Assembly: GCA_021372235.1 (NCBI GenBank)
Contig: JAJFUW010000146.1
Coordinates: 322-64,321 of the forward strand
Direction of reading: 5' to 3'
Source: Spirochaetia bacterium
Lineage (GTDB): Bacteria > Oederibacteriota > PGYV01 > Palsa-1178
DNA length: 64,000 bases
The stretch's first letter is position 1. Each line of letters begins with the position of its first letter. Made by a program: the position numbers and the translations under genes. Of the stretch, positions 2,215 through 43,666 are shown piece after piece. Below the pieces are notes generated by a model. That model ran no database searches, had not been told where the DNA came from, and saw only the letters and a list, made by a program, of their open reading frames with translations.

Positions 2215-4839
2215 TTAATATGTTGTCCAGGATGATGAAGGGTCCCCGGTAAAATTATTCCCTGAAGTGTTTGGCGATATACCGGAGAGGACCTTGTAAT
2301 ATTTTTTAATAGTCCTCACAGGTTTCTGTACCGTACCTGTAATAGAGACCGAAGAGTAGTAGGCGTAAATATTATAAGTCGCGCCGACGGGCGCTTTGAT
2401 GCTGTATGAGGAATTCTGCCCGGATATGGAGCCGTAGTATGGCTGTGTCACGCGAAGCCTCTGAGTATGGCCCTGCATGTTTTGGTCAGCATTGGTCCTG
2501 GTGTATTTATCCGCAACAAGTGTTACGGACGAGGGATAAGCCAGAATCAAAAGCCCGCCGGCCGAATCCGCCTCTGTAAGGTTTATGGTCCCGGAAATTG
2601 TGCCGTATTTGGCCCTGATTTTGAAATCTTTACCGAATGTGGTGATGCCCTGTACTACGGATACGTTTGACCAGTACTGGCCTATCGGGTAGGTGATGAC
2701 GTACTCATCCTCGTCAACGGAAGGCTGGACCTTGTAACCGCTGCCTACAGGGATGTCGGCTATCTCGTAAATACCCGATGCGTTTGACAGCCCCGAACCC
2801 AAGACGGTTCCGGCGTTATTTTTGAGCTCCACGGTAATCCCCGAAACAGGGTCTCCTGTCACGTCGTCTGTTATCATGCCCGAGACCTTGCCTACGGGGT
2901 ACATCAGTATATCCGGTGCGTACTGCACACCGTTCTGGATGGAGGACAATGAGATGGGCTCGGATATCCTGTATCCCGATAGAGAGGCTGTCAATATGTA
3001 TGAACCCACCGTTGCAGGCATTATGGTGTAATTGCCTCCGCCGACGGTTGTCGGGCTCACATCAAGCGGGTCCGACAGGTATACTTCGGCGCCTATGAGG
3101 CCTAATCCGGTAAGCGCGTCCTTGACCCTGCCGTTTATAGTAGGCACATCTGAGGTTACGGTCAGGAAGATGTCCTGGTACGTTACGGTGCCTGCCGATA
3201 CCGGGACTCCGGTCAGGCGTGCATAATAGGATATGGGCGGGGAGTCGCTGGTCCTCCTGGTTGCCTCGAGCACGGTCTCACCGGTGGACGGGTCGATGTT
3301 GTCAACCCTGTAATAGCATGCGGTCGTCAGGTATGGCATGGACAGGCCGTCCAGGGATTTTATCGTGGCATTGTCCGCGCATGGCGACGGATAGGGTGTC
3401 GGCGTAACAGCAGGGGTGAATGTCGATGTGGGTACGGGTGTTGCGACCGCGTATTGCACCTCGAGGTACGCGTAATCCATGCCAATCCAGGCTATGAAGT
3501 TCGGGCTGGTATTGGCGCTTCTGAAGGCAACACCAAGGCTGTTGACCTTTGCCCAGGTCCAGGAGTCATAAAGCGGGGTCAGCGGGACTGAAAATTCCAG
3601 GTAGTCTGCCATGTTCGGTATGTTTGTACTGTTGTAAACAGTTGAAACGGTGCCAGTCCAGCCGCTTGGCACGGCGGTATCTGCCCAGACAGACCCGCCG
3701 TTGTTAGTCACATGCAGCCGCACGGTCGCGGAACCGTAGTAACAGTTAGCCCTGTATTTCAGGGTAACACTGCAGATATATGTGTTGGCCTCGGTATAGT
3801 CGGCGAATTGCGAATATAGCAGCCTGTTGTTGCGGTTAACCAGGAACCCAAGATCGGTATCAGAGTCATTGTTGTCCTGTACGGATATACGCGTAGGGTA
3901 GTTCCAGTTGGAGGTTTTACCAGACATGGAACCGGTGGCCCCCAGTATCTTTGTAATGCCACAGAAGGGCACGGGTGTCGGCGACGGCGTGACAACCGGC
4001 GTGGGGGTCGCTATGACGTCCCAAAAGACATTACCGGAAACCGAGCCGCAGTCAACGGCGGGGCATGTGATGTTTATGTTCGGGATTACAGTGGGGATGT
4101 CGGGGACTGTCAGGGGGTTGGATGTGTATTCAGTATCCTGGAGCCCTGCACCCTTTGCGACCAGGCTGTATGAGCCGGGCGCAACGTTGGATATGGAGTA
4201 ATTGCCCGCGTCATCCGCTATCCTCCCGGTATACTGCGGGTAGCCGATGAAATGTACCGAGGCGTTGGAACCCAGGCCCGGGTCCGTGACGGTCCCGTCG
4301 TTCAGAAGTTTGCGGACGCGGCCACTGACCGTTGAGCCCGATAGTGGCAGCTGCTTGTTCGAAACCAGCGTCGACATCCTGCTGGATTTCTCAAAACCGC
4401 CAGACATGTATGTCACCACAACAGTTATCATCTTCAGGTCGTGCTTGTTATCAGGCGGGAGCTCTGACTGTTTTGACGGGGTTATGTTGCCGTCGTTTTG
4501 TTCATACGCGTACTGGACATACCTGTAGACCTTGAATGGTTGGTTTCCTATCATTACGGACTCATAATAGTCGGGGTTCGATTCGAGTTTGGAAAGCGGG
4601 TCAGGCAGCAGGTTGTCGTCGGTAACGGCCAGCCCCTCAAAACTGTTCTGCCGCATCCTGTCGAGGTTTTCCGATACAAGGTTCATGGAGTATGTTTTCA
4701 TCTGGGAAGCTGTTATATCCCTGTAAACCCTCGTGATCAGGTTTACTGCGGCGACTATCATTATTGCGGTAATTGTGGAGGAAATGAGCAATTCTATTAA
4801 TGTGACACCTCTGGATCCAGAGATTTTTTTCATCATCAT
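2215..4839 (-). CDS. giant (874 aa) prepilin-type N-terminal domain protein with repeated beta-sandwich (CarboxypepD_reg/Cna-B-like) domains and PT-rich linkers
   Basis: N-terminus MMMKKISGSRGVTLIELLISSTITAIMIVAAV (GVTLIEL pilin motif). Body has several ~80-aa units with the G.V.D...G.pl.gA.V...P.....Yt....G.Y pattern typical of CarboxypepD_reg-like folds, plus TPTPVVTPSPTPVP and TPVPTSTFTPAVTPTPYPSP linkers. 10-nt gap to the downstream pilin gene. Confidence 0.7.
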   Translation of the reverse strand: MMMKKISGSRGVTLIELLISSTITAIMIVAAVNLITRVYRDITASQMKTYSMNLVSENLDRMRQNSFEGLAVTDDNLLPDPLSKLESNPDYYESVMIGNQPFKVYRYVQYAYEQNDGNITPSKQSELPPDNKHDLKMITVVVTYMSGGFEKSSRMSTLVSNKQLPLSGSTVSGRVRKLLNDGTVTDPGLGSNASVHFIGYPQYTGRIADDAGNYSISNVAPGSYSLVAKGAGLQDTEYTSNPLTVPDIPTVIPNINITCPAVDCGSVSGNVFWDVIATPTPVVTPSPTPVPFCGITKILGATGSMSGKTSNWNYPTRISVQDNNDSDTDLGFLVNRNNRLLYSQFADYTEANTYICSVTLKYRANCYYGSATVRLHVTNNGGSVWADTAVPSGWTGTVSTVYNSTNIPNMADYLEFSVPLTPLYDSWTWAKVNSLGVAFRSANTSPNFIAWIGMDYAYLEVQYAVATPVPTSTFTPAVTPTPYPSPCADNATIKSLDGLSMPYLTTACYYRVDNIDPSTGETVLEATRRTSDSPPISYYARLTGVPVSAGTVTYQDIFLTVTSDVPTINGRVKDALTGLGLIGAEVYLSDPLDVSPTTVGGGNYTIMPATVGSYILTASLSGYRISEPISLSSIQNGVQYAPDILMYPVGKVSGMITDDVTGDPVSGITVELKNNAGTVLGSGLSNASGIYEIADIPVGSGYKVQPSVDEDEYVITYPIGQYWSNVSVVQGITTFGKDFKIRAKYGTISGTINLTEADSAGGLLILAYPSSVTLVADKYTRTNADQNMQGHTQRLRVTQPYYGSISGQNSSYSIKAPVGATYNIYAYYSSVSITGTVQKPVRTIKKYYKVLSGISPNTSGNNFTGDPSSSWTTY

Positions 4840-4891
4840 ACCTTCATTTATTTAATATCTAACAATATAATTATACAATAAGCTGGTAAAA

Positions 4892-5650
4892 TTACAACTT
4901 TTTTGTAAAGTTTGATTTTATAAGATATACAATTATTGATACAAAAAATATGACGGCACAGGTGATCTGCACCGGGGTCGGGAAAGAGTATCTGTCCTGA
5001 TACCGCATCAATTCCAGGAAAAACCTTGCAGCGGAGTAAAAAAACGCCAGCAGGACCATAAGTTCGCCGCTGAATTTTTGGTTTTTTTTCCTTATGAGAA
5101 GTATAATCAATATAAATAACCAGACGGTTGACTCGAATAACTGGACAGGCAGCAATGGCATGCCCGCGAATATTGTATATGGGTATGAACCATAGGGGTA
5201 GTTTACGCAAAATTCCCATCCGTTGGATGGCGGGATGCCAAAACAGCAGCCGCGCAACTGACAGCCCATCTTGGCGAACATACACCCTGCGGCAATTGAC
5301 GGCGCGAAATAGTCTGAAGCAATCCACGGATCGGTCTTTAGCAGACGGGCAATTGGGAAGGCAAATAGCGTAGCGGTTATTAGGCCCGGTAAAAGAGAGA
5401 CATCTCCCCAAAAAGAGAGGAGGCATCCGGCCTTGCCGGAGAGCAGGCAGACAACCATCTCCCAGCCGCGTGCCCCGCAGTAAAACGGGATAATAATAAC
5501 AGCCGCAAAGAGGAGTAGTTTTATCCGTTCCTGCCTGTCAATCGGTCTGGTGGTGTAAATCAGGAGGGAAAAACCGCATATTATACCGGCAACGGCAAGT
5601 ATATTGTACGACGGGACCTGCAGTGTGGCAAAATAGAAATATGGTATCAT
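4892..5650 (-). CDS. Lgt-family (prolipoprotein diacylglyceryl transferase-like) membrane protein, divergent, Cys-rich signature
   Basis: By-eye alignment to E. coli Lgt. SDYFAPSIAAG matches SDFIAPLIPFG; LLPVQLFESTVWLFILIIL matches HPSQLYELLLEGVVLFIIL; FFYSAARFFLELMRYQD matches IGYGAFRIIVEFFRQPD (Y...R...E conserved). Canonical G-R-L-G-N-F-I-N-G-E signature replaced by AKMGCQLRGCCFG. Confidence 0.65.
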   Translation of the reverse strand: MIPYFYFATLQVPSYNILAVAGIICGFSLLIYTTRPIDRQERIKLLLFAAVIIIPFYCGARGWEMVVCLLSGKAGCLLSFWGDVSLLPGLITATLFAFPIARLLKTDPWIASDYFAPSIAAGCMFAKMGCQLRGCCFGIPPSNGWEFCVNYPYGSYPYTIFAGMPLLPVQLFESTVWLFILIILLIRKKNQKFSGELMVLLAFFYSAARFFLELMRYQDRYSFPTPVQITCAVIFFVSIIVYLIKSNFTKKL

Positions 5651-5841
5651 CAGCGCTCCACCTTTTTTCTATTATATCATAATTAAATCTGAAAAAAGGC
5701 ATAAAATGAATATTGTCCTGTATGATTACAGGATGAATGGCGGGAATGTCAATATATTGAAAAATAGAAAAATGAGATTTTTGTGATTTTTGGGAACAAC
5801 CGTATAAAGCAGAGTGTCATAATGGAATATATTTGATTAAA

Positions 5842-6571
5842 CTATACAGGCTTGCGTTTTACCCATACAAAAACAGCCAAAAGTATGGCCAATAAGCACC
5901 ACAACCGGCCAATGGAGAGTATTTGAACGCTGTCGTTGTGGCGGAAAAACTCGATTGTGAAGCGGAAAGTGCCGTAAATGAAGAAAACTGCGGCTATCAT
6001 CCTGCCAAAGACAGGCTTGTTTCTATATAATAATATAAGCAGGATGAACGTGACGAGCCATGCCGTGGATTCGTACAATTGCGCAGGGTACAGGGGCAGG
6101 TCCGGGTATATCTGCGAAGCGCCGCTGTTAAAGGGGAAGGTAACGGCAAAAGGCGTATCAACAGGGCACGGCGTTCCGAAACAACAGCCGATAAAAAAAC
6201 AACCGAGTTTGACGAAAAATCCGCCTATCGCGATAGAGGGAGCGTACAGGTCGGCGGTTTCCCAGACATCTATATTTAAAAATTTGGCTGCGGGGAATGC
6301 GCAGAGTACGGCTGTCGCGAGCCCCACACCACAGCGAATCGCCGGACGGCGTGGCCGCAATGTAATGGGAAATAATGCCGCCGAGGCGCGCGCCGATGAT
6401 GAACGGGATAAAGATAGCTGCGGATAACAAAAAAATATTTTTTCTATTGTGCGACCCTATGGAGCGTGTCAGGAAAAACAGCATGATAAACCCGGAGGCA
6501 GCGCCGAGCAGGTCAAAGAGATAAGCTGTCTTGAAAACAAACCTGTTGAATTCAAAAAGTATGGGATACAT
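5842..6571 (-). pseudogene. second Lgt-family paralog, apparent +1/-1 frameshift near 6320-6345 (or sequencing error)
   Basis: ORF 6571..6158 encodes the N-terminal TM part (..PFIIGARLGGIISHYIAA) then runs into nonsense. ORF 6360..5842 in another frame encodes the conserved continuation (AFPAAKFLNIDVWETADLYAPSIAIGGFFVKLGCFFIGCCFG...QLYEST...FIYGTFRFTIEFFRHND). The frame switch falls at the cccc run 6322-6325. Confidence 0.55.
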
Positions 6572-6654
6572 CCCGGCCGCCTTTCGTAAATTATTTTCTG
6601 ACGGACCATTATAGCATAAAGAAAAGTAATTTTTGGTTTGCGGGGTAATTTTAG

Positions 6655-6696
6655 TTACGAAAAATAATTGAAATCTGTCAAAAAATCTACTATAAT
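6655..6696 (+). promoter_or_regulatory. sigma70-like promoter (TTGAAA-17-TATAAT), copy 1 of a duplicated ~41-nt promoter block
   Basis: ttacgaaaaataattgaaatctgtcaaaaaatctactataat; -35 at 6668-6673, -10 at 6691-6696, 17-nt spacer. Near-identical copy at 12431-12472. Confidence 0.5.
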
Positions 6697-6730
6697 AGCC
6701 ATATAGTAATTAAATTTCAAGGACGGGAAA

Positions 6731-7168
6731 ATGAAGAAAATAAAAGCGGTCGCATTGTCATTATTGTTTGTTTTTATTTTTTTGCCATTCGTTTCAGCCG
6801 AGGTCAATACGGTAAGCGTAATCAGCCTGACCCCTCCAAACCCAAATCCCGGCGACTCTGTGGCTGTTGAGTTTAGTTACTGTGTTGGTGCAAATGAAGA
6901 GAGCAGGTTCATGCTCGCTGTTTCGTCATATCCGACTTTCCAGGCCGGAGGCACGACCGGACAAGATTTCAAAGTAAGCGAAGGCGGATTTGATATAGGA
7001 GGTACAGGCGGAGGGACGGCAAGTGTCAGCGGTGGTTATGACATGAACGACCAGCAGGGCGCGGCCCATTGCCAGACCCTGACATGGAACATCCATATAC
7101 CGAACACCATATCCGAAGGCGGCACCTATTATGTTGTGATCGGAGGCAAGACGGGTATAAAATTTTAA
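6731..7168 (+). CDS. small secreted protein; truncated paralog (N-terminal domain only) of the 12507..14786 protein
   Basis: Signal peptide MKKIKAVALSLLFVFIFLPFVSA. Residues 24-145 align with the N-terminus of the 759-aa protein, including the conserved Cys pair (FSYCVGANEES / AAHCQTLTWNIHIP). Stops exactly where AT-rich DNA begins. Confidence 0.7.
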   Translation: MKKIKAVALSLLFVFIFLPFVSAEVNTVSVISLTPPNPNPGDSVAVEFSYCVGANEESRFMLAVSSYPTFQAGGTTGQDFKVSEGGFDIGGTGGGTASVSGGYDMNDQQGAAHCQTLTWNIHIPNTISEGGTYYVVIGGKTGIKF

Positions 7169-7233
7169 TAAATTTAAATATTGATGTTGGGCGAAAATAT
7201 TTTGCAAAAAAAATTCTCGGCCGGGGGTATTCT

Positions 7234-10200
7234 TTGATTAAAAAAAATCTTTTTATTTTAAATTTTATTTTTTTTACTTGTGTGACTATATATGGTGCTG
7301 CAGAAGTAAGGAATATTACTCTTTCCACGCAATGTATTAATCCCGGTCAAAGTATAACAGTTTCATTTGAAGTTAAATGTAATGCATATTTGAGAGTATA
7401 TGGTGATATATTATTTTCATCAAACTCGGTTGCAGAATATAGTGATGATTGTGTGTTTGGAGAGAACGGTTATTATGAAACCCCGGTTATTACTGGCCAC
7501 AACGGAGGATTACTTTTTGAAAATAACTATTCAACTTCAAATTGGAGTACAATCACAAAAACAATCCAAGTTCCTGATTTTTATACAGACGGAAAGTATT
7601 TAATTATAAATGTTGCAGAAAATTATCAACAACTGTTCAATTGGGGAAGCCATATTGAAGGAAGCAGTAGCCTATATATAAATATCTGCGAAAATTACAC
7701 AAATACATTAACGCCAACAATCGTTTTTCCTAATAATTCATTCACTGTAACTCCTACTTGTTCTTATACTATGACACAAACATTGTCACCGACGTCCTCG
7801 AATATTATTGTACCGACAATTACATGTACTCCAACAATAACAATTGCATTACCAGAAGTATATAAAGTGAGAATCGACTATAAACCTGGAAGTGATGAAA
7901 CAAACATAATCAAACCCTATTTTAGATTATACAACGAGAATACAATACCATTAGATCTTTCGAAGGTTAAAATAAAGTATTGGTACTTAATTGAAGATGA
8001 TTCACAAAATGAGAATAGAGAAATTTATTGGGTTGGAAAAAATAGCGGCGCAATAGATGTAACAAATAGCACTTTTGCTGAAATTAGTAAGACCAATATG
8101 GAAGATCAAAATCGTTGCTACGAAATAACATTCAGCAGCAGCGCGGGGCTATTAGATCAAGGGCAGTTTGTTGAGGTTCAAAGTGGAATATTTAAAGTGA
8201 ATTATAGCGATTATGATCAAGATAATGACTGGAGCTATAACAGCAGAAATGCAACATCTTTCGAATCTAATGGTAAAATAACTGTGAATGTCGACGGGAA
8301 AAATATATATGGAATGGTACCTTTTGATAAAAATCAACCAGTAATTATTAACATGAACTGTGGTGGTGCTGGATTTAATGACCACTTGGGAATTTTATAT
8401 TTGCAGGGACGTAAATATGAAAAAGGAGGATGGGGCTCAGAGTATTTTCCTGATATTTTAAGTAAACCTCAATTACCAATTGCAGGTACAGTCGACCAGT
8501 ATATTTATCAAAATGCGGTATTAGGAAGTCCAACGAAACCATTGCATTATATCTATGATAACATTCCAGTTGGATTGTATGAAGTAAAATTCAAATTCGC
8601 TGAAATTGATGAAAATGTAACAAGTGCTGGACAAAATGTATTTTCAATAGATATCGAAGACAAAAGTATTTTTCAATATATCGATGTGTTTGCTTCCGCC
8701 GGATTTGCCTATGCATATGAATTAGTAACCAAAGTTGCCGTATATGACGGTCAATTAAATATTGATTTTAATGGATCGTTTGCCAATGGGATTACAGTAC
8801 AGCAGATTTATGAGCAGGCAACACCGCAAACCTCAAGTAGTGCTACTTGTGATGCATGGGTTGACATTGACGGAGTCGGGCAGAATAATATTAATGTATC
8901 AAACACTGGAGAAAATTCGAAAAACCCATGGTTTGAAATTGACAGCAATAATCATACACACATAATGTGGATGGAGTATGCTGCTATATTAAGATATGAG
9001 GAGTGGGATGGAACATCCTGGAGAGGAGTTGGCGGTATAGGAAGTGGTTATTCAGCAGTAAACACACTTGGGAAAAGTATGCATTCATATTCATTCACAA
9101 TGGACGGGTCAGGTTATCCAGTTGTTACATTTGCAGGTAAATCTAGCTATAATGGAATATTTGACATTTATTGTACTAGATGGAATGGGTCAACGTGGGC
9201 CGATGTTACAGGCTCAGGAACAAGTAAATTGTGTGTTTGGTGCGGTAAACCCATAAACTATAATCCTTATGTTAAAATGGACTCTTTAGGAAATCCGCAC
9301 ATCGCATTTCATAGCATACCGTCTTATGGTGGCAGAATGGGTTATATAAGATGGAACGGAGCAGACTGGACGGATATTGATGGAGCAGGGACGGAAAAAG
9401 TGGTTATAGATAGACCCGGATTAGAGAATTCATATAATAGACAATTTGTTTTTGATTCAGCAAACCATCCGCATTTAGTTTGGATGCAGGAATATGATGG
9501 AACAGGCGAAATAAATTATATGAATTGGAATGGAACTAACTGGGTTGATGTGACGGGTTCCTCATCATTAAGTAAAATTAACATATCAAATAATAGCACT
9601 TACTCTACTTGCCCACAAATTGTTCTTGATTCAAGCGAATATCCAAATATTATATGGGTGGATGGTTCTACAAGTTCCAACAGTTTTAAGATAAATTTTC
9701 TAAAATGGAATGGAACTGCCTGGGTGGATATAGATGGTGTTGGAAAAGAATCTCAAGTTTTAAGTTTTACAAATTGTTCATCACAATCAGTTTCTATGGT
9801 TCTCGATAATGAAGGTAATCCGCATGTTGCTTGGGTTGACAAAAGTACAAATGAGCCATATTACGTATATTGGAATGGAACGGCATGGGTTGATGTTAGG
9901 GGTTCTACATCATTATCTAGTATTAAGGTTTATCAAGATACTGAAAAATATTCTAGTGCAAGTAGTGCCCAATTATGTCTTGATAATGATGGCATACCGC
10001 ATATCGCATGGACTAATTATAGCAAAAATAATGGATTTAGTGGCGAAATATACTATCTTAAATGGGGTGGAGCATGCCCGCCAACACCTACGCCTACACC
10101 TATAATTTGTGTATTAACTGAAACATCATATGGAGATAATGGGGAATTACAGTTAGAAAATTTAGCAGCATCGATGACAATGGACAATACGGGGAAAATA

Positions 10201-12405
10201 GTCACATCAGGTAATTACAATAATAATTATTTGGAGATTGCAAGATATAATCAAAATGGCACAAAAGATTATACATTTGACGGAGATGGACAAGTTTTAA
10301 CATATATACCCGGACTCGCTGGCAATCATGCGGTAATAGCTGATGAAAACAATAAAATACTAGCAACAACAAGAAACAATATAGATGGGCGTGTAATGGT
10401 TAGATGTCTGCCAAACGGACAGATTGATACTACGTTTGGAACAAACGGATATGCAATGCCGCCTTCAGGCGTGGACTTTTATGCGTGGGACATGAAAATA
10501 GATTCAGAAGGAAGAATAGTGGCGGTAGGTGTAAGTTCGGGAAACAATTCTCCAATTATGACAAAAATGACAGTATGCAGATATAATCCGAATGGGACAT
10601 TGGATTTAAGTTTTAACGGAACAGGATATACAACGAATAATATAAGTACAACAAATCCGACATTAAATACAATAGGGTTTGGCATAACATTTGATCAAAA
10701 TAATAAGATTGTTATTGTCGGAGAGGGAAATAATCCAACAACCGGTATGGTGATATGGAGATTTAATGATAACGGCACATTGGATACGAGTTTTAATGCT
10801 ACCGGAACCAATCCGGGAACAATAGTAGAGACTAAATATGCTGGTTCTATAAGTGGAAGAGAAGCATATATCGACGGGTTGGGGAGAATATTAGTAACTG
10901 GAAGTTGTTATCTGGCAAGCTGCGAGATGGCGGCAATATACAGATATAATACAGATGGATCCCCGGATATGAGTTTTGGAACTGGAGGATATACAGCAAT
11001 AAAAGGAAATGGCAATAAAGGCATAACAACAGACAAATGCGGAAGAATACTAGTTTTGAATACTGAAGGAGGACTTATAAGTAGATTCAATGACGATGGG
11101 ACTCCGGATACGACATTCAATAATGGGCAATATAGTATATCTGTTGCAAATGTAATATATGGAGAAGATTTAATATTGGAAGAAGATGGCGATATATTTG
11201 TTTTAACTATGGAACGAAATATGACTGACATGTCAAGTAACAGCAAGATAAGGAAATATAAGAACAATAGTGTTTGTGTTTGCGCACAAGTTACATTTAC
11301 GCCAACGCCGACAATGAATTGTACACCATCTTGGCAGTATATTGGAACGCCGGGAATATCAATTGGTATTGCAAATAATGGAGGAATAGGTATTTCATAT
11401 GGTACTATATATATAGGATTTAATGACTATGGGAATGACGGTAAAACATCAGCAATGTTTTTTAATGGCTCAATATGGAATAACATTGGCGGAATTGGAT
11501 TTTCAAATACATCAACATCAAATCCTTCATTTTTTGTCTTTAATGGTATGCCATACATGGCTTATGCAGATAATACTAATGGTTTTAAGGCAAAGGTTAT
11601 GAAATATAAGTATGGAATCTGGATACCTGTCGGATCGACTAGTATATCAGATGGTGAAGCACAAAACCTGTGTCTTTATGTATACGATGATGGTACTGTA
11701 GATGGATTACCATATCTTGCATTTAGGGATATGTATAATCTTGGTAAGGCAACAGTAAAAAGATTTTATGGTTCAAGTTGGACTGATGTGGGTGGATATC
11801 CAGCCATTACTAATGCAACTGCATATTATATGTCTTTTTATGTATATAATAATGGTACGACTTTTGGAATGCCATATTTAGCTTTCGAAGACTCGGCATC
11901 AGGCAGCAAAGCAAGTGTAATGAAATTTAATGGTACTTGGACATACGTTGGAGGATCCCCGGGAGCATCAATTGTTGCAGGGACATATACATCAATATAC
12001 ATATATAATAATGGCACATTTGAGGGATTACCATATCTAGCTTTCAGTAATATGGACAATTCCTATAAGGCTAATGTGATTAAATTTGAGACTGGGATTT
12101 GGCAAGTTGTGGGAGTACAAAATTTTACAACTACTGGTTCATCGGAAAATAAAATAGAAGTGTATGATGATGGATTAACTATTGGAGGAATACCTTATCT
12201 TGCATATATTGATTTTGATACTACATTTAAAGCAAATGTAGTGAAACTGGTTGGTTCAAGTTGGCAAAGTGTTGGTAGTGCAAATTTCACACCAAGTAAT
12301 ATCGGCCAAATATTTTTTGATATATGCAAAGGAATACCTTATGTATCTTTTGTTGACTGGAATGCTGATGGAAAATTAAGTGTGATGAAATATGATTGCC
12401 AATAG
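7234..12405 (+). CDS. giant secreted multidomain carbohydrate-binding/repeat protein (CBM3-like, malectin-like, W-rich propeller, delta-60 repeats, second propeller)
   Basis: The track ORF 7069..12405 begins with TTG and overlaps the upstream gene. A TTG at 7234 preceded by GGGGG gives the signal peptide LIKKNLFILNFIFFTCVTIYGAA. Domains by eye: CBM3 (YKVRIDYKPGSDETNIIKPYFRLYNENTIPLDLSKVKIKYWY...DWSYN); malectin (VIINMNCGGAGF...YEVKFKFAEIDEN...); repeats ..NPHIAW...WNGTxWVDVxGS; PTPTPTP linkers; delta-60 (RYNxNGTxDxxFxGxG); final ~50-aa repeats (G.PYLAF.D....KAxVxK(F/Y)..g.W..VG). Gene GC is visibly much lower than the flanks. Confidence 0.8.
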   Translation: MIKKNLFILNFIFFTCVTIYGAAEVRNITLSTQCINPGQSITVSFEVKCNAYLRVYGDILFSSNSVAEYSDDCVFGENGYYETPVITGHNGGLLFENNYSTSNWSTITKTIQVPDFYTDGKYLIINVAENYQQLFNWGSHIEGSSSLYINICENYTNTLTPTIVFPNNSFTVTPTCSYTMTQTLSPTSSNIIVPTITCTPTITIALPEVYKVRIDYKPGSDETNIIKPYFRLYNENTIPLDLSKVKIKYWYLIEDDSQNENREIYWVGKNSGAIDVTNSTFAEISKTNMEDQNRCYEITFSSSAGLLDQGQFVEVQSGIFKVNYSDYDQDNDWSYNSRNATSFESNGKITVNVDGKNIYGMVPFDKNQPVIINMNCGGAGFNDHLGILYLQGRKYEKGGWGSEYFPDILSKPQLPIAGTVDQYIYQNAVLGSPTKPLHYIYDNIPVGLYEVKFKFAEIDENVTSAGQNVFSIDIEDKSIFQYIDVFASAGFAYAYELVTKVAVYDGQLNIDFNGSFANGITVQQIYEQATPQTSSSATCDAWVDIDGVGQNNINVSNTGENSKNPWFEIDSNNHTHIMWMEYAAILRYEEWDGTSWRGVGGIGSGYSAVNTLGKSMHSYSFTMDGSGYPVVTFAGKSSYNGIFDIYCTRWNGSTWADVTGSGTSKLCVWCGKPINYNPYVKMDSLGNPHIAFHSIPSYGGRMGYIRWNGADWTDIDGAGTEKVVIDRPGLENSYNRQFVFDSANHPHLVWMQEYDGTGEINYMNWNGTNWVDVTGSSSLSKINISNNSTYSTCPQIVLDSSEYPNIIWVDGSTSSNSFKINFLKWNGTAWVDIDGVGKESQVLSFTNCSSQSVSMVLDNEGNPHVAWVDKSTNEPYYVYWNGTAWVDVRGSTSLSSIKVYQDTEKYSSASSAQLCLDNDGIPHIAWTNYSKNNGFSGEIYYLKWGGACPPTPTPTPIICVLTETSYGDNGELQLENLAASMTMDNTGKIVTSGNYNNNYLEIARYNQNGTKDYTFDGDGQVLTYIPGLAGNHAVIADENNKILATTRNNIDGRVMVRCLPNGQIDTTFGTNGYAMPPSGVDFYAWDMKIDSEGRIVAVGVSSGNNSPIMTKMTVCRYNPNGTLDLSFNGTGYTTNNISTTNPTLNTIGFGITFDQNNKIVIVGEGNNPTTGMVIWRFNDNGTLDTSFNATGTNPGTIVETKYAGSISGREAYIDGLGRILVTGSCYLASCEMAAIYRYNTDGSPDMSFGTGGYTAIKGNGNKGITTDKCGRILVLNTEGGLISRFNDDGTPDTTFNNGQYSISVANVIYGEDLILEEDGDIFVLTMERNMTDMSSNSKIRKYKNNSVCVCAQVTFTPTPTMNCTPSWQYIGTPGISIGIANNGGIGISYGTIYIGFNDYGNDGKTSAMFFNGSIWNNIGGIGFSNTSTSNPSFFVFNGMPYMAYADNTNGFKAKVMKYKYGIWIPVGSTSISDGEAQNLCLYVYDDGTVDGLPYLAFRDMYNLGKATVKRFYGSSWTDVGGYPAITNATAYYMSFYVYNNGTTFGMPYLAFEDSASGSKASVMKFNGTWTYVGGSPGASIVAGTYTSIYIYNNGTFEGLPYLAFSNMDNSYKANVIKFETGIWQVVGVQNFTTTGSSENKIEVYDDGLTIGGIPYLAYIDFDTTFKANVVKLVGSSWQSVGSANFTPSNIGQIFFDICKGIPYVSFVDWNADGKLSVMKYDCQ

Positions 12406-12506: not shown

Positions 12507-14786
12507 ATGAAAAAAATCCTAAGAAGCTTATTAATGGTGTTGCTTGTAACTTTTACGCTTACACCTGTTTTTGCCACTGTTACATCAGTCAGCATTACAA
12601 GCGTGACACCGGCCAGCCCTGCTCCGGGTGATCTGGTGCAGGTTATTTTCAATTATTGCGCAGGCCCTTATGAAGATACTAAGATGGTGCTGGCGGTCTC
12701 AACAAACTCAAGTTTCATGGCGTGCAATACGGCCGGTCAGGAGTTTAAGGTAAGCGAGGGCGGAATGGATATTGGAGGGACCGGGCCCGGAGCGGCAACC
12801 GCCAATGGCGGTTACAATATGAGCGACAACCAGACTGTTGCTCACTGTCAGGATATTACATGGAGCATACATATTCCCACAACCGCAACGCCAGGCCTGA
12901 CATATTATATCCTTGTCGGAGGCAGGTCCTCTTATATAGGCTGCAATGATGCGCAGGCGTACGCGAACTATTCTTTTGTGGCACCGTTGCCGTCGCCGGC
13001 TGCAACAATATCCAAAACAGCCGAATCCTCAGTAGTCCAGCCGGGAGATCTTGTGCTTTTCAGTATCGATTACACTTTTGTCAATGGCACCAATTTTACC
13101 ATAACTGACAACATCCCTGCAGGCTGCGTGATTGAATCCGTAAGCAACGGCGGTATTGTCTCGGGTTCCACTGTTTCCTGGGCAACGGCATCCGTGCCGG
13201 GGCCGCAAGCAAGCGGGAGCGTGTGGTTCACCGCCAGGGTTAATACGGGCACCACACCCGGCACAGTGATCTCAAACACTGCCCACTGGGCCATGGACGA
13301 GATACCGGCAGGCGGTGACAGCAGCGCGGTGACGGTCACGGTAGGGCAGCCGTTTTCGATAACCAAAAGCCAGAACGTAACAACAGCTGCGATAGGAGAA
13401 ACGGTAACATATTCTTTTGATGTACGGGCCGGCGGATCGGCATTTCATTCACTGGATAATTTCGACGCCGACCTGAACGGTTTTACGGTTGCCGGTCCCG
13501 GGCCGGGCTTTATCTGGCAGTCTGACGCCGGCGGCGGACATATCTATTCATATGAGCAGACAGGCGGACAGTACCCGCATCTCTTGAGGACTGACCTGGG
13601 GAATTTTTGCTTCGGTGACATACAGGGAGACCTCTACATAATAAACAAGGCCAGCGGAGACAATGATGCATTGATAACATTCCGGGACAATGGTTTATAC
13701 GGGGCTGCGGGAGCCGCATACGGTGTTGGCATCTCTCCTGACGGTTCAAATTCCGTCGGCCAACAATTGTGGATACAAAAATATGTATCAGGCACGACCG
13801 GCGGCACGTTTGCGGGAGCGTTCATATCGATTTCTACGGATGCTTGGTATACCGTTAAGATCCATGTATCAGATACAGCCAGCGGTGTCAGGATACAGGC
13901 AAAGGCATGGCTGAGAGGCACTGCTGAACCGGCTGCTTATATGGCGGACTGGACCGATACGGCCGCAATCATCGCTCCATGCGGGTATGTTGGCGTTCAG
14001 GGTAACGCCAATAACGCGAACTACTACGACAATCTGAAAATAGTAAAGACCACAATGTCATATCCTGCCCTGTACGACACCCTCCCGACGGAACTGACTT
14101 TCGTGGGCGGGACCGGCGCTGACGCGACACACTCCGCAGCCACGCTGACGGGCAACACCGTGAAATGGTCCATATTTACATCGTTTGTTGACGCGGCTTA
14201 CCATCTGGACCTGTGGGCCGTTGTGAACGCCTGCGGCACTCTTTTGAACAGGGCAACGATAGACACCGAGGAATCCGCGCCTGTTGACTCAAACCAGGTA
14301 TCCATCAATGCTCTCTGCCCCGAGTCGCCGACGATAACCCCGACATTTACGATTACAGAGACATATACGGATACCGCAACACCGACAATAACGCTTACAT
14401 CAACCCTTACGCCGACCCTCACAGAGACGCTTACCCGCACCGTCACAATGACGTTAACCGCGACCCCGACGCCGACGGTGCCGCTCGAGCTGACACCGGT
14501 CACGAACTACCCCAATCCTTTCGGCACGTCCGACAAGCAGACAACCACGATTGTTTTCGAGCTCACAGCGGATGCGGACTGCACCATAACGGTATTTACC
14601 CTGTCAGGAGAGACCATATACAGGTCGGGGACATTTGCGGGGTTAAAGGGCAGGAACTCGTATCCATGGGACGGGAAAAATAACGGCAACAAATTCGCCG
14701 CATCAGGGGTCTATTTTTACAGGATAACCGCGGAAAATCCCTCCGGGAAAAAGTCGGCGATTTCAAGGCTTGCGGTTTTGAGGTAG
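12507..14786 (+). CDS. secreted 759-aa protein: conserved N-terminal domain, DUF11-like repeats, LamG-like region, Thr-rich linker, Por_Secre_tail-like C-terminal sorting domain
   Basis: Signal peptide present. N-domain paralogous to 6731..7168. DUF11-type segment (PGDLVLFSIDYTFVNGTNFTITDNIPAGCVIESVS...TVSW...NTAHWA). C-terminus TNYPNPFGTSDKQTTTIVFELTADADCTITVFTLSGETIYRSG...GVYFYRITAEN matches the T9SS-type CTD (YPNPF hallmark). Confidence 0.8.
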   Translation: MKKILRSLLMVLLVTFTLTPVFATVTSVSITSVTPASPAPGDLVQVIFNYCAGPYEDTKMVLAVSTNSSFMACNTAGQEFKVSEGGMDIGGTGPGAATANGGYNMSDNQTVAHCQDITWSIHIPTTATPGLTYYILVGGRSSYIGCNDAQAYANYSFVAPLPSPAATISKTAESSVVQPGDLVLFSIDYTFVNGTNFTITDNIPAGCVIESVSNGGIVSGSTVSWATASVPGPQASGSVWFTARVNTGTTPGTVISNTAHWAMDEIPAGGDSSAVTVTVGQPFSITKSQNVTTAAIGETVTYSFDVRAGGSAFHSLDNFDADLNGFTVAGPGPGFIWQSDAGGGHIYSYEQTGGQYPHLLRTDLGNFCFGDIQGDLYIINKASGDNDALITFRDNGLYGAAGAAYGVGISPDGSNSVGQQLWIQKYVSGTTGGTFAGAFISISTDAWYTVKIHVSDTASGVRIQAKAWLRGTAEPAAYMADWTDTAAIIAPCGYVGVQGNANNANYYDNLKIVKTTMSYPALYDTLPTELTFVGGTGADATHSAATLTGNTVKWSIFTSFVDAAYHLDLWAVVNACGTLLNRATIDTEESAPVDSNQVSINALCPESPTITPTFTITETYTDTATPTITLTSTLTPTLTETLTRTVTMTLTATPTPTVPLELTPVTNYPNPFGTSDKQTTTIVFELTADADCTITVFTLSGETIYRSGTFAGLKGRNSYPWDGKNNGNKFAASGVYFYRITAENPSGKKSAISRLAVLR

Positions 14787-15795: not shown

Positions 15796-16824
15796 ATGAA
15801 GGAAAAAACATGCATCGCCCTTTACTCCGGCGGGCTTGATTCCCTGCTTGCCGCTAAAGTAATGATGGACCTGGGTTTCAAGGTTATCATACTTAATTTT
15901 TCCACGGGTTTTTTCTTTAATGCCTACACAAAAGACGCAGACGGGGGATTAAAATACAAGGCGCCCGCCCCGGATGGCTACGACATACGTGTGGTGGATA
16001 TATCAAAGGACTTTTTTGAGATGATAAAGAACCCGGCCCACGGTTACGGCTCCAACATGAACCCGTGCATAGACTGCAAGATAATGATGCTCAGGAAGGC
16101 AAAGTCCATGATGGAGGAACTGGGTGCAGGTTTTGTCGTAACCGGCGAGGTCCTGGGCCAGAGGCCCATGAGCCAGAACGGCCATGCCATGATAGAGATA
16201 GAAAAAGAGGCCGGACTGCAGGGATGGCTCCTGCGGCCGCTGTGTGCAAAAAATTTACAGCCCACGGAACCGGAAAATTTGGGATGGGTGGACAGGGAAA
16301 AACTGCTGGATTTTAAGGGCCGCACCCGCAAACCTCAATTGGCAATGGCAAGGTTGCTGGGGTGGCAAAAATACATACAGGCGCCCGCGGGCGGCTGCAT
16401 ACTGACGGATGAGAGCTACTCAAAAAAACTAAAGGATCTTTTTAAACATAAGGGCCGCTCCGAACTCCAAACTTCGAACTCCGAACTGACTTCTGAGGAT
16501 GTCCTCCTCCTCACCCTGGGCCGGCAGTTCCGCAGGGACGGGGTGAAATTCATAATAGGAAGGGACCAGGAAGAGAACAAAAAGATAGCGGAGTTTAAAG
16601 GCAAGGGGACCACGTTTGACACAAAAGGAATATCGGGGCCGACAGGGTTCACACTCGATGCAATTAGCGACGAAATGAAAACATATATAGCGTGCGCAGT
16701 AGCGGGATTTTCCAAGGTCGCGGGGTATTGTGAAGTGGCGGTTGTGGAACAGGGAGAGGAAGAGGTTATCAAGGTGAAACCGCTTAAAAGGGAAGAACTG
16801 GCCCCGTATAGAATAGACGCATAG
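15796..16824 (+). CDS. ThiI-family PP-loop ATPase (tRNA sulfurtransferase-like), THUMP-less, with C-terminal extension
   Basis: PP-loop ALYSGGLDSLLAA. NPCIDCKIMMLRKAKSMMEELGAGFVVTGEVLGQRPMSQ aligns with ThiI PCLKCKRTMYRIAEKIA..AIVTGESLGQVASQT. No THUMP domain. A ~130-aa C-terminal tail holds an in-frame heptad-repeat insertion (SELQTSNSELTSE). Confidence 0.7.
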   Translation: MKEKTCIALYSGGLDSLLAAKVMMDLGFKVIILNFSTGFFFNAYTKDADGGLKYKAPAPDGYDIRVVDISKDFFEMIKNPAHGYGSNMNPCIDCKIMMLRKAKSMMEELGAGFVVTGEVLGQRPMSQNGHAMIEIEKEAGLQGWLLRPLCAKNLQPTEPENLGWVDREKLLDFKGRTRKPQLAMARLLGWQKYIQAPAGGCILTDESYSKKLKDLFKHKGRSELQTSNSELTSEDVLLLTLGRQFRRDGVKFIIGRDQEENKKIAEFKGKGTTFDTKGISGPTGFTLDAISDEMKTYIACAVAGFSKVAGYCEVAVVEQGEEEVIKVKPLKREELAPYRIDA

Positions 16825-16829
16825 AACCG

Positions 16830-16964
16830 CCGTTGTAGCGGAAGTAAAGAGCCCGAAGCGCGACCGCAGGGGTCGCGGCTACGAGAGCGGTTTGTTGATT
16901 AGAGGTGTTTTAAAAGCAGTCGTTGTAGCCGCGACCTTCATGGTCGCGGAAGTGGCAGTGAAAG
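16830..16964. repeat. modular direct/inverted repeat block (CGTTGTAGC..GGAAGT x2 with GCGACC-loop-GGTCGCGG hairpins x2)
   Basis: 16830-16851 ccgttgtagcggaagtaaagag. 16859-16875 gcgacc-gcagg-ggtcgc. 16920-16964 cgttgtagc[cgcgaccttcatggtcgcg]gaagtggcag, i.e. copy 2 is copy 1 with a hairpin inserted. Confidence 0.5.
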
Positions 16965-16973
16965 GATGGTTCT

Positions 16974-17351
16974 ATGAAGTTAATTATAGACGGTTATAAC
17001 CTGATGTACAGGCTGGAACTGGAAGGCTCACTTGAACAGAAGCGCGACGAGATGTTTGAACTGCTCTCCGAGTTCAAAAGCGTCAACCCATGCGACATAA
17101 CAGTTGTTTTTGACGGCAGCCGCAACCCATCCACGCAGAGGGGCAGGGAATTCAAACTCGGAATAAATGTCATATACTCTGCACGGGGCGAAACAGCCGA
17201 TGATATCATAATGGAAATGGCTGAAAAGCACACCATGGGCAAGGCAAAGGAAAACATCGTGGTCTCCTCGGATAACCGCGTCCGTAATTTTGCCGTGGAA
17301 CATTTCATGAAAGGGATGACGAGCGACGAGTTTGCGGAGTACCTGATATGA
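16974..17351 (+). CDS. NYN-domain (YacP/Rae1-like) putative ribonuclease
   Basis: LIIDGYNLM...DITVVFDG...INVIYSARGETADDIIMEMAE...IVVSSDNRVRN parallels B. subtilis YacP (LLVDGYNMI, VIVVFDA, VEVIFTKENETADERIE, IHVATSD). Confidence 0.7.
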   Translation: MKLIIDGYNLMYRLELEGSLEQKRDEMFELLSEFKSVNPCDITVVFDGSRNPSTQRGREFKLGINVIYSARGETADDIIMEMAEKHTMGKAKENIVVSSDNRVRNFAVEHFMKGMTSDEFAEYLI

Positions 17352-17545
17352 GGCGAAGAGACTGAAGACAGGAGACAGGAGTACTTCAAAACATAAAACA
17401 GGTCTTGTTTGTTCTACTTTTATCTCCGGTCTCCTTCCTACCGCCCAAAACCCATCCAAATTTTGCTTGACTTTCAGGGAAAATTTGTTATATTTAGGCA
17501 TCCTATTTATTTATTAGGCTTAAAAATAATTAGAGGCAAAAACAA

Positions 17546-18022
17546 ATGGACAGGAACACTGCAGAGATTATTGAGTGCATCAAATTTATGGGAAAGATAA
17601 ACAAACCCATGATGCCGCACCATTTCAAAAAGAGAGGCGTCATGGACCTGACGCTTTCCCAGCTTGACGTTATGGGATATATGTATGAGGTGAACACGGA
17701 GAAGCCCAGGCGTGTCAAGATGAGCGATCTTGCCAGGCATGCCGGGGTTAAGATGCCTACAATGACCGATATGGTAAACAAACTGGTAAATGCCGGGCTG
17801 GTTATGCGGGAACATGATGAGGCGGACCGCAGGACCGTCTGGGTGAGCGTTTCCAGAAATATGGAAAAGATGGTATGCGGCCACATAAAGGAAAGGGACA
17901 ACGAAATATCGTGCATCATGGACTGCCTGACGGAGAAAGAGAAAAAGCAGGCGGCGGTCATATTGAAAAAAATTAAAAACTCTATGGAAGAGAGGATGAC
18001 AAAATGGGCAAAAAGTCACTGA
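17546..18022 (+). CDS. MarR-family transcriptional regulator
   Basis: LTLSQLDVMGYMYE...MSDLARHAGVKMPTMTDMVNKLVNAGLVMREHDEADRRTVWVSVS is a winged-HTH MarR pattern. First gene of an efflux operon. Confidence 0.75.
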   Translation: MDRNTAEIIECIKFMGKINKPMMPHHFKKRGVMDLTLSQLDVMGYMYEVNTEKPRRVKMSDLARHAGVKMPTMTDMVNKLVNAGLVMREHDEADRRTVWVSVSRNMEKMVCGHIKERDNEISCIMDCLTEKEKKQAAVILKKIKNSMEERMTKWAKSH

Positions 18023-18603
18023 TATTTATGCTCCTTGCACTGGTTCTGACGGTACCGGCTTTTGCCGGAAACAGGATATTTTTCACGGAATACGGGATTT
18101 CATACGCAAGTCCCCTGGAACCGTCAAACATGGAGAACAACACGACGGGGACATACGACACGGCCGCGTTTGACATCAAGGCGGGTGTGAACATATTGAA
18201 ATGGGCGGGTGTTTACGGGCTGACCGGATTCCAGATGTTCGTCGACAGGACGGGGACACAGCAGCACTATTCATTCTTCCCGATAGGTATAGGAGTCAGA
18301 GCAAACATATTTCCGGAATGGCCCGTATATCCGGATTTTATTTTTGAGTACGGCAGGGCTTTTGCCAACAGGCACACCCGCTGGACGGTGCCGGCGCCGG
18401 CGCCCTATTACACAGCGGTTGTCACTAACGACGGGCCGTGGACGGCGGATTATTACTCGTTCGGATTCGGCGTTAACTGGAACATCACCTATGTTTCGGT
18501 CATCTCGCTCAGGTTCGAGAGGCCTTCGTTTTCGAATACAGATTCTTCAGGCGGCGAGATACACATAGCAAAACTCGGCCTTGCCTGGAAACTATTTTAT
18601 TAA
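18004..18603 (+). CDS. small outer-membrane beta-barrel protein, hypothetical
   Basis: Signal peptide MGKKSLIFMLLALVLTVPAFA. Alternating hydrophobic pattern. C-terminal ...LAWKLFY. Confidence 0.55.
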   Translation: MGKKSLIFMLLALVLTVPAFAGNRIFFTEYGISYASPLEPSNMENNTTGTYDTAAFDIKAGVNILKWAGVYGLTGFQMFVDRTGTQQHYSFFPIGIGVRANIFPEWPVYPDFIFEYGRAFANRHTRWTVPAPAPYYTAVVTNDGPWTADYYSFGFGVNWNITYVSVISLRFERPSFSNTDSSGGEIHIAKLGLAWKLFY

Positions 18604-39970: not shown

Positions 39971-39990
39971 AAGGCAAAGGCAGATAAAAA

Positions 39991-40053
39991 CAGTTTGGAG
40001 TTTGGAAACAAGGCCAAACTCCAAACTGAAGTTATTTGTTTTTAATATTTTTT
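39991..40053 (+). terminator. rho-independent terminator built from a GGAGTTT heptad inverted repeat
   Basis: cagtttggagtttgg-aaacaaggc-caaactccaaactg (perfect 15-bp stem) followed by aagttatttgtttttaatattttttt. Confidence 0.7.
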
Positions 40054-40067
40054 TAGGGGAGGCTTTT

Positions 40068-40745
40068 ATGAAGATGGTTGTATCTGTCCTTTTGGTTTTA
40101 TCCGTCGCTCTATTTTTTGTTTCCTGCGGCGACAGTATTGCTCCGACAGGTTCCTCAGGTTCCACGGGGATTGTTGTCATGCAGTTCCTCGACGGTGTGT
40201 ATCCGTCCAATGGTTATACGGGAACTGAGGATACCATGGTATACAGCGCCCACCCTTATGACAATTCAGGAACAGCCGCGGGCGGGTATATAGGATACTC
40301 CGGCGGCGGCATGGGAAAGTCGAGGATGTTCATAAAATTTGACGTTTCAAACATAGTGCCTTCCGACGCGCACGTCGTGTCCGCGTACCTCAAAGTAAAC
40401 CTGGCAGGGGCAAAAAATAACACGATCAATGCCTGCGCCATAACAAGCCGGTGGGACGAAACCGGGTGCTCATGGATCAGCAGGACCGCTTCTGACCTGT
40501 GGACAACGCCGGGCGGCGATTACGGCGTTGCCATGGGCGCGAAGTACATGTCAGCCACCGAATGCGAAATATTCCTGAACGAGGATATTGTGGAGGGCTG
40601 GATATCGTCACCTTCCACCAACTATGGCATGGTGCTTGCAGCGTCAGATGAAACAACAGACAGCACTGAATACAATACGGTTTATACATCCGACAATGCT
40701 TCTTTCGGGGTCAGGCCGAGCCTGACGGTATACTATACGCCGTAA
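40068..40745 (+). CDS. lipoprotein with DNRLRE-type (CBM96-like) domain
   Basis: Lipobox LFFVSC. DTMVYSAHPYDNSGTAAGGY...RMFIKFDVSNIVPSDAHVVSAYLKVNL...RWDETGCSW pattern matches the DNRLRE domain logic (..yLkFDls.ip....v.sA.L.l...W.E...tW). Confidence 0.6.
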   Translation: MKMVVSVLLVLSVALFFVSCGDSIAPTGSSGSTGIVVMQFLDGVYPSNGYTGTEDTMVYSAHPYDNSGTAAGGYIGYSGGGMGKSRMFIKFDVSNIVPSDAHVVSAYLKVNLAGAKNNTINACAITSRWDETGCSWISRTASDLWTTPGGDYGVAMGAKYMSATECEIFLNEDIVEGWISSPSTNYGMVLAASDETTDSTEYNTVYTSDNASFGVRPSLTVYYTP

Positions 40746-40987
40746 ATAGGCGGTAAAATGGAAGGGTTGCCTATAGGAATTTGAAATATGTTTTAATATC
40801 CGTTATATAAAAAAATAACAAAAAAACTTGACAATCTTTATTATATTGATATATTATTATGTCAAATGGGTGGTTATTATGATTTTTTAAGATACCTCTA
40901 CACACAGGAGGTGCGCGGGGTTAAAAAAATTTTTGTTTTTGCATTACCGGTTTGAGGTTTCACAACAAAAAAATGGAGGAAAGCAGA

Positions 40988-42229: not shown

Positions 42230-42292
42230 TATGAACCCATACTGCCTGGCTTTTGGGTCCGGCTGTGATGAACAACAAAAAAACGGAGGACG

Positions 42293-43627: not shown

Positions 43628-43666
43628 GCAATTGCACCGAAAAATCTTGAAAGAAGGAGAAGCGCA

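Follow-up and report, generated by a model that had tools for sequence, protein, structure and literature searches.

Lgt-family genes beside a conserved set of pilin-like genes: a probable cassette-linked offshoot of the Cys-type Lgt clade

Lgt is usually seen as a housekeeping enzyme that serves one purpose and is universally conserved, and it is treated as an antibiotic target. Why, then, should two genes of its family lie immediately upstream of a set of pilin-like genes, as they do in the 64,000-nucleotide (64-kb) stretch of Spirochaetia bacterium DNA analyzed here (GenBank contig JAJFUW010000146.1, positions 322 to 64,321; hereafter, the window)? All of these genes are on the minus strand. 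Read from upstream to downstream, they are copy 2 of the Lgt-like pair (5842-6571), then, after a 191-nucleotide spacer, the intact copy 1 (4892-5650; 252 residues) and, after a further 52 nucleotides, the genes p877 (2215-4839), p220 (1545-2204) and p521 (1 to about 1491). An earlier note on this DNA, made from the sequence alone, had pointed to the pair, and the 52-nucleotide distance that it gave is exact: positions 4840-4891 separate the stop codon of copy 1 from the start of p877. Our answer has two parts. The association of the Lgt-like gene with a pilin-like cassette is real and conserved, and the best explanation of both open reading frames (ORFs), judged by their sequences, is that they represent a separate and rapidly evolving branch of the Cys-type Lgt clade that has become a fixed component of this cassette.

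The earlier note assigned both ORFs to the Lgt family, and profile searches bear this out. Against the Pfam LGT model (PF01790; gathering cut-off, 24.9 bits), copy 1 reaches 86.5 bits, aligned from position 5 to position 239 of the 240 in the profile, and the C-terminal ORF of copy 2 (5842-6360, minus strand) scores 101.5 bits. The SDFIAP, QLYE and Y-x3-R-x3-E blocks that had been called conserved can be read directly in the translations, as SDYFAPS, VQLFES and YSAARFFLE in copy 1 and as ADLYAPS, AQLYES and YGTFRFTIE in copy 2. The same is true of the replacement of the canonical signature G-R-L-G-N-F-I-N-G-E-L-W-G by AKMGCQLRGCCFG in copy 1 and VKLGCFFIGCCFG in copy 2. The His of the HGGL block is substituted in copy 1 (LLPGL), as had been proposed, but this is not a trait of that copy alone: copy 2 has LWCGL. 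The note's impression that these are not housekeeping-type Lgts also agrees with the scores on the NCBIfam lgt equivalog TIGR00544, where copy 1 reaches 61.1 bits and the C-terminal ORF of copy 2 reaches 71.0. Both values are about half the cut-off of 118.9 bits, and by this sequence measure neither copy is a typical lgt equivalog.

The relationship to Lgt is distant enough that a search of the PDB with copy 1 as a single sequence returned no Lgt, missing even the Escherichia coli structure 5azb. A six-sequence family profile retrieved E. coli Lgt from the same database (E value, 6e-11), so that in the PDB Lgt is recognizable only with a family profile or a structure model. The AlphaFold (AF2) model of copy 1 has a predicted local distance difference test (pLDDT) value of 81.4 and a predicted template modeling (pTM) score of 0.77; submitted to Foldseek against the PDB, it gave 5azb as its sole significant match (E value, 2.7e-7; TM score, 0.73). 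Copy 1, which is identical to the database protein P0001, is thus modeled as an Lgt-family protein with the seven-transmembrane Lgt fold. In the profile alignment, the three Cys residues of its signature fall on E. coli positions N146, E151 and L152. Equivalents of Y26, D129, G145, G150, G154, Y235, R239, E243 and R246 are present; the counterpart of R143 is Lys, N146 is replaced by Cys, and position 103 aligns to Leu or Pro. E. coli Lgt absolutely requires six residues, Y26, H103, R143, N146, G154 and R239 (PMC13251419), and neither copy has the full set, with Lys at 143, Cys at 146 and Leu or Pro at 103 in copy 1, and Cys at 146 and Trp-Cys in the 103 block in copy 2. Because N146C and a residue other than His at 103 both occur in Lgts considered functional (PMC13251419), these departures make activity less likely without excluding it. 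Set beside the E. coli enzyme (5azb/5azc), then, copy 1 shares the Pfam family, the predicted fold and most of the key residues. It differs in having Cys at 146, 151 and 152, in lacking the G98-G99...H103-G104 block, in a shorter periplasmic head, and in being encoded in a pilin-like cassette rather than in a housekeeping context.

Both copies carry GCxxxGCCFG, an instance of the Cys-type signature [GA]-[RK]-x-[GA]-C-x3-G-C-C-x-G, and the earlier note took this block as a sign of an unusual enzyme. That claim did not survive. When 1.84 billion representatives were searched exhaustively with a profile, 13,601 matched, and all but three of the best 150 have the signature. Moreover, the pattern C[LF][LF][NRY]GCC[FI]G, sought in a single genome of each species, returned at least 600 stretches, at least 518 of which encode Lgt relatives, and the motif thus occurs in more than 500 species-level genomes. 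The signature is found in Zixibacteria, Ignavibacteria, Eisenbacteria, Omnitrophota, Latescibacteria, Fermentibacteria, KSB1, Calditrichota, WOR-3, Gemmatimonadota, Planctomycetes, Verrucomicrobia, Bacillota and Coatesbacteria. Proteins of this wide clade score 117 to 153 bits on TIGR00544, against the cut-off of 118.9, and examples are encoded in the contexts ileS-lspA-LGT-LGT and mreBCD-pbp2-rodA-LGT. Nor is the motif new to the literature: a 2026 mBio paper (PMC13251419) describes Cys at N146 and E151 in distant Lgts, reports N146C in MSMEG_5408 of Mycobacterium smegmatis, and finds that the Lgt of Leptospira interrogans, with N146C and a second Cys nearby, partly complements E. coli. We therefore rejected the Cys motif as the mark of a rare, lineage-specific enzyme. 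It belongs to a very large multi-phylum clade that has already been described and is often found in housekeeping contexts; since it is common, scores at equivalog level and stands beside lspA or mreBCD-rodA, the Cys-rich signature is ordinary, gives no evidence of novelty and is unfit as a flag for unusual function. One locus of this clade has two LGT genes: in a Deltaproteobacteria metagenome-assembled genome (MAG; GCA_002731275.1, L014/L015 5976-9062), ileS-lspA is followed by tandem LGT genes of about 350 residues, the second with the Cys-type signature GRLGCFSAGCCHG; the signature of the first, GMLGSYAAGFSYG, is degenerate and without R143, although that protein still exceeds the lgt equivalog cut-off.

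Within the Cys-type proteins, the relatives of copies 1 and 2 form a group of their own. The representative search has a gap in its scores, with 26 representatives at 165 to 392 bits and then a continuum at 141 bits and below, and the subfamily above the gap comprises about 26 clusters at 50% identity. A hidden Markov model (HMM) built from 22 full-length members, with copy 1 left out, gives cassette-linked genes 275 to 353 bits, whereas no other Cys-type gene in 77 genome loci exceeds 174. With this subfamily HMM copy 1 scores 267 bits (leave-one-out) versus 153 with a wide-clade HMM; for copy 2, after repair of the frameshift described below, the values are 279 and 167. On TIGR00544 the subfamily reaches about 53 to 78 bits. 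A residue table of 23 subfamily and 60 wide-clade sequences locates the difference. In the subfamily, Arg or Lys at 143, Cys at 146, 151 and 152, G154 and R246 are each kept in 23/23 sequences, D129 in 22, R239 in 19 and Y26 in 18, together with Gly or Ala at 145, G150, and Tyr or Phe at 235. The G99/H103/G104 block, however, is gone: position 99 is variable, 103 is Trp, Leu, Pro, Cys or Gly, and 104 is Trp, Pro, Cys or Gly. The wide clade, in contrast, shares the C-x3-G-C-C-x-G block (C146, C151 and C152 in 58 to 60 of 60) but keeps G99 (59/60), G104 (60/60), largely Y103 (43/60) and G142-R143. This holds for a clade that ranges from L. interrogans and M. smegmatis to Zixibacteria, Ignavibacteria, Omnitrophota and Deltaproteobacteria MAGs, with equivalog-level scores and varied, often housekeeping contexts. 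Ten positions, including the C-x3-G-C-C-x-G block and R246, are invariant across 22 subfamily members that share 30 to 45% identity, and full-length Lgt-like ORFs are kept in more than 25 loci.

The company that these genes keep is equally constant. The core of the cassette encodes the Lgt-like protein, a PilV-like protein of about 875 residues, a PilW-like protein of about 220, a PilX-like protein of about 520, and a Wzy_C-TPR protein of about 590. The usual accessories are a UbiA prenyltransferase (DGGGPS/ChlG type) and p415, a UbiA-fold membrane protein of 415 to 494 residues. In the window the contig stops within the PilX-like gene, and the positions of Wzy_C, UbiA and p415 are thus beyond the readable DNA; no UbiA gene occurs elsewhere in the 64 kb. 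Synteny of the Lgt-like and pilin-like genes in relatives, a check that the earlier note had proposed, is found from both sides. Starting from the Lgt-like gene, p877 comes next, directly or after UbiA, in 10 of 10 informative loci (L001, L004, L009, L010, L011, L013, L018, L020, L121 and the window). Starting from the pilin-like genes, a p521 profile run against Joint Genome Institute (JGI) metagenomes gave 21 loci, and every one of the 15 that reach far enough upstream has a subfamily Lgt-like gene. With the subfamily HMM, 14 of these 15 score 289 to 330 bits and the copy cut by a contig end in L112 scores 212; with the wide-clade HMM the range is 141 to 202. The cassette is absent beside all 77 wide-clade Cys-type Lgt loci, which gave only weak, TPR-driven Wzy matches. 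The note had been prepared to abandon its reading if the Cys-rich variant proved standard and pilin synteny was missing elsewhere; the variant is indeed standard, but the synteny is there.

Gene order within the cassette is fluid. UbiA precedes the Lgt-like gene in L001, L009 and L018, follows it in L004 and L118, and comes after Wzy_C in L010, L020, L101 and L103. In L006 (9003-9721) and L008 (1141-2187), a HEPN/nucleotidyltransferase (toxin-antitoxin) pair sits between UbiA and the Lgt-like gene, with an IS256-like transposase a little farther downstream. Just past the Lgt-like gene in L006 and L119, the contig ends or an IS256-like transposase breaks in, and this transposase probably explains the contig breaks at the cassette (L006/L008). 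In L115 (1-13385), two complete pilin-like/Wzy_C cassettes diverge around one Lgt-like gene (5902-6678, minus strand), and a single enzyme gene apparently serves both. Genes have been reordered without a change in the set, which speaks for selection over inertia. Rates of divergence point the same way. Between the same loci, pairwise identity is 36 to 44% for the Lgt-like protein and 32 to 56% for UbiA, p877, p220, p521, Wzy and p415, whereas flanking genes are 51 to 54% (ThiI-like) and 59 to 73% (x595) identical. By these sequence comparisons the Lgt-like protein diverges at the rate of the cassette, faster than the flanking genes, which argues against pure inertia. A limited literature search found no account of an Lgt-UbiA-pilin system or of Goldbacteria pili, and as far as that search shows the association is undescribed. 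We would class what is new here as a system-linked subfamily within an enzyme family already known; the Cys motif itself is not new.

How pilin-like are the partners? The earlier note counted three prepilin-type genes; two can be upheld, one of them with a borderline score, and the third is plausible. p220 (219 residues) is a PilW/GspJ-like pseudopilin with the N-terminus KKG/FTLIELM, an N_methyl score of 30 bits and a TIGR02532 score of 25 bits versus a cut-off of 16.3. p877 (874 residues) is a PilV-like pseudopilin with CarboxypepD_reg/Ig-like domains (CarboxypepD_reg, 73 bits) and Thr/Pro-rich linkers; its N-terminal motif is visible (SGSRG/VTLIELL), with an N_methyl score of 20.9 bits, just below the cut-off of 21.2, and a weak match to TIGR02523 (PilV). 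p521, the 3' end of whose gene is lost at the window edge, has a PilX/GspK-like hydrophobic segment after G/Q (G/QTLVFVMML...) without Glu5, and no HMM, Pfam or PDB match was obtained for it, including in a PDB profile search. A tblastn search of the window with the 521-residue protein of L001 aligns residues 6-510 at 52% identity. Each of the three proteins has invariant Cys residues at a distance from the N-terminal helix: three apiece in p877 and p521, and one or two in p220.

The remaining core member, a membrane protein of about 590 residues, combines a Wzy_C domain (66.7 bits) with C-terminal periplasmic TPRs. The acceptors to which Wzy_C enzymes ligate glycans are lipid A-core, pilins (PglL/TfpO) and a glycolipid anchor (TacL). 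The resemblance to the PglL, TfpO (PilO) and TacL systems lies in a Wzy_C protein encoded with pilin-like proteins that bear Thr/Pro-rich linkers; the differences are the C-terminal TPR array and that no glycan-synthesis genes were seen in the cassette.

What might an Lgt relative do in such a setting? The reading that we favor, with a probability of roughly 0.55, is that it is an Lgt-derived lipid transferase dedicated to the cassette. Copy 1 would keep Lgt-type chemistry at the outer (periplasmic) face of the inner membrane; its conserved basic residues would bind the headgroup of a glycerophospholipid, and the glyceryl-lipid moiety would then be transferred. The putative acceptor would belong to the cassette and not to the general lipoprotein pool, being either a Cys of a pilin-like protein, where invariant Cys residues are present, or whatever the Wzy_C ligase then decorates. 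The subfamily retains the basic and acidic residues with which E. coli Lgt holds the headgroup of its phospholipid. System-dedicated extra copies of lgt have a precedent in the Firmicutes plasmid lgt genes beside lipoproteins of a conjugative type IV secretion system (T4SS; PMC13251419), where an Lgt-family gene likewise lies next to the machinery that it presumably serves; the partners there are classical lipobox lipoproteins, whereas those in the cassette are prepilin-type proteins without a lipobox. If the reading is right, a dedicated surface structure has co-opted Lgt chemistry, which would point to a new lipid modification of pseudopilins or their glycans. Several observations weigh against it. 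No acceptor was found among the cassette proteins: the three pilin-like proteins lack a classical lipobox, and no Cys lies close to their N-terminal membrane segment; the nearest invariant one, in p521, is about 12 to 15 residues past it. The cassette loci all seem to represent a single lineage (under the labels Goldbacteria, Spirochaetia and 'bacterium'), and unrelated neighbors are syntenic as well (ThiI/NFACT-R_2, CLIPPER/DUF11, MarR-OEP-MFP-RND and x595), so part of the synteny may be inherited. There is no other LGT gene in the window or in the ±10-kb flanks of related loci, and among the best 120 of at least 2,699 matches to a wide-clade profile none could be assigned to this lineage. 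Finally, Asn or Thr replaces R239 in 4 of 23 members, the residue at the H103 position varies, and some members may be non-catalytic in the classical sense.

Two of these points, the lack of a second LGT gene and the syntenic flanks, are also what would be expected if the subfamily were simply the lineage's only Lgt, a housekeeping enzyme that lipidates all lipobox proteins, with its place beside the pilin-like genes inherited and of no functional import. Cys-type Lgts elsewhere are bona fide, being encoded beside lspA or cell-wall genes and reaching the equivalog cut-off, and the L. interrogans example partly complements E. coli (PMC13251419); the headgroup-binding positions R/K143, R246, D129 and G154 are kept. 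We nevertheless consider this explanation, the main rival, rather doubtful. Subfamily scores are only about half of what the lgt equivalog demands, the G99/H103/G104 block is gone, R239 is missing in some members, and divergence keeps pace with the cassette and is faster than in the neighbor genes. Moreover, the gene has stayed with the cassette through internal rearrangements and one cassette duplication, the window has two subfamily copies from different sub-branches, and lspA is never adjacent to a subfamily gene. Those same losses (R239 replaced in 4/23, G99 and G104 gone, 103 variable) could also be taken to mean that Lgt activity has been lost, leaving a structural membrane partner or, at this locus, a gene on its way out; the frameshift in copy 2 and the rearranged DNA just upstream of it, with a truncated CLIPPER-like duplicate and a low-GC insertion, fit such decay. 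Against it stand the ten invariant positions in 22 members, the full-length ORFs in more than 25 loci, and the presence of every invariant residue in repaired copy 2, and we regard a relic as quite improbable, the least probable of the explanations considered.

The accessory genes point toward isoprenoids. Cassette UbiA has intact NxxxDxxxD and KDxxDxxGD motifs, and the PDB entries that it matches best are AfUbiA (4tq3), chlorophyll synthase and DGGGP synthase (6m31). Among NCBIfam models it matches those for ChlG, homogentisate phytyltransferase and DGGGPS, in each case with a score well short of the equivalog cut-off. p415, for which a PDB profile search gave no meaningful match, is fused to UbiA in L114 (543 residues; 16406-18037) and in six database proteins, one of them with TPRs as well; this supports, at the level of sequence, a putative two-component prenyltransferase module with isoprenoid chemistry. 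In L114 a GGR-domain flavin adenine dinucleotide (FAD) oxidoreductase (PF22578, 31 bits; 5921-7069) is encoded between the Lgt-like and p877 genes. UbiA and p415, with the GGR-like reductase at that locus, might make an ether or prenyl glycerolipid that the Lgt-like enzyme would transfer to a cassette protein or glycan, a bacterial analogue of the diphytanylglyceryl lipoproteins of archaea. UbiA is present in most cassettes, but L110, L115 and L121 have neither UbiA nor p415 within 10 kb. Because of these minimal cassettes, the pair is not required for the Lgt-pilin link and counts as accessory to a core of the Lgt-like, three pilin-like and Wzy_C-TPR proteins. The GGR-like gene is confined to one locus, no GGGP synthase was seen, and the UbiA subtype rests on weak scores. 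Isoprenoid-glyceryl lipidation is unlikely in our estimate. The archaeal parallel is conceptual, a glyceryl-lipid transferase encoded with a DGGGPS-like UbiA: archaeal lipoproteins are described as bearing diphytanylglyceryl thioethers (PMC12462473), and AliA/AliB, which act in archaeal lipoprotein lipidation, as not being Lgt homologues. A broader proposal, that the cassette is an undescribed bacterial surface module in which an Lgt-derived enzyme lipidates a pseudopilin or its glycan, possibly with an isoprenoid-glyceryl lipid from UbiA/p415/GGR, is a long shot. Were it true, pilin-like proteins would be anchored by a lipid, which is not a known modification of the type IV pilin-like class and would chemically recall the lipoproteins of archaea.

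Returning to the pair itself, copy 2 is frameshifted, as the earlier note had seen: it is split between two frames (6158-6571 and 5842-6360) by one surplus G in a GGGG run at 6322-6325 (minus strand), and the gene call deposited for it is a 161-residue fragment, P0024. Deleting one G from the run yields a 242-residue ORF in which the join, SLWCGLATA, agrees with the family consensus SLxWGL and all family-invariant residues are present. No further gene looks broken among about 40 long ORFs of the window, including a 1,037-residue AcrB matched end to end, so the frameshift is not part of a generally error-ridden assembly; it may be a real, very recent pseudogenization or a single homopolymer or assembly error. 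Copy 2 is 35% identical to copy 1 and 40 to 50% identical to P0004, P0012, P0015 and P0020. In a star-like neighbor-joining (NJ) tree the two copies fall in different halves, each of which holds cassette-linked members. A recent tandem duplication was rejected on these grounds, the low identity and the opposite placement in this star-like, NJ-only tree. By sequence, copy 2 is another member of the subfamily, one that diverged long ago and is either freshly inactivated or mis-assembled; no other locus examined has a tandem Lgt-like pair. As to which copy belongs with the pilin-like genes, p877, p220 and p521 of the window are closest to those of L009 (46, 48 and 52% identity), and because the Lgt-like gene there, P0007, lies in the same half of the tree as copy 1, copy 1 is probably the cognate enzyme gene.

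The DNA upstream of copy 2 has a history of its own. A 145-residue ORF (6731-7168, plus strand) shares 52% identity with the N-terminal 141 residues of orf759, a 759-residue CLIPPER/DUF11 protein (12507-14786, plus strand). Between them lies a 5.3-kb ORF (7069-12405, plus strand) that encodes 1,778 residues with DUF5122 propeller, Malectin and CBM_3 domains. Its G+C content (GC) is 0.355, and 0.25 at third codon positions (GC3), against 0.488 for the whole window, for which reason it is probably acquired DNA. From its sequence the 145-residue ORF looks like a truncated CLIPPER-like duplicate that would mark a rearrangement hot spot directly upstream of copy 2, and copy 2 may be a remnant carried in by, or left from, that rearrangement. 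The composition of both Lgt-like copies is native-looking (GC, 0.47 to 0.50; GC3, 0.55 to 0.62).

A consensus scan of the minus strand gave two candidate sigma-70-like pairs: TTGTAA-16-TATAAT at 4870-4897, which matches at 10 of 12 positions and spans the copy 1 stop codon and the 52-nucleotide spacer, and TTGAAA-17-TATTAT at 6692-6720, upstream of copy 2. A canonical lgt, lspA and type IV pilus (T4P) machinery were sought in the 64-kb window and none was found. A regex scan of the window returned no strict lipobox. The sole loose lipobox candidate among its larger ORFs is ...VALFFVSC, in a CBM96/disaggregatase-repeat protein (39948-40745, plus strand), and the RND outer-membrane factor and membrane-fusion protein of the window are without a lipobox. 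In most related loci a gene for x595, a soluble protein of about 595 residues with no Pfam match, is convergent to the 3' end of the cassette (L001 18768-20552, L010 4018-5802, L114 13386-15173 and L121 17368-19155, all minus strand; also L104 and others). It was set aside as a cassette member, being soluble, on the opposite strand and without an evident link. Farther along the window, at 40952-44908 (plus strand), three tandem secreted paralogues of 425, 444 and 413 residues, without a Pfam match, have similar signal peptides and a mutual identity of 24 to 38%.

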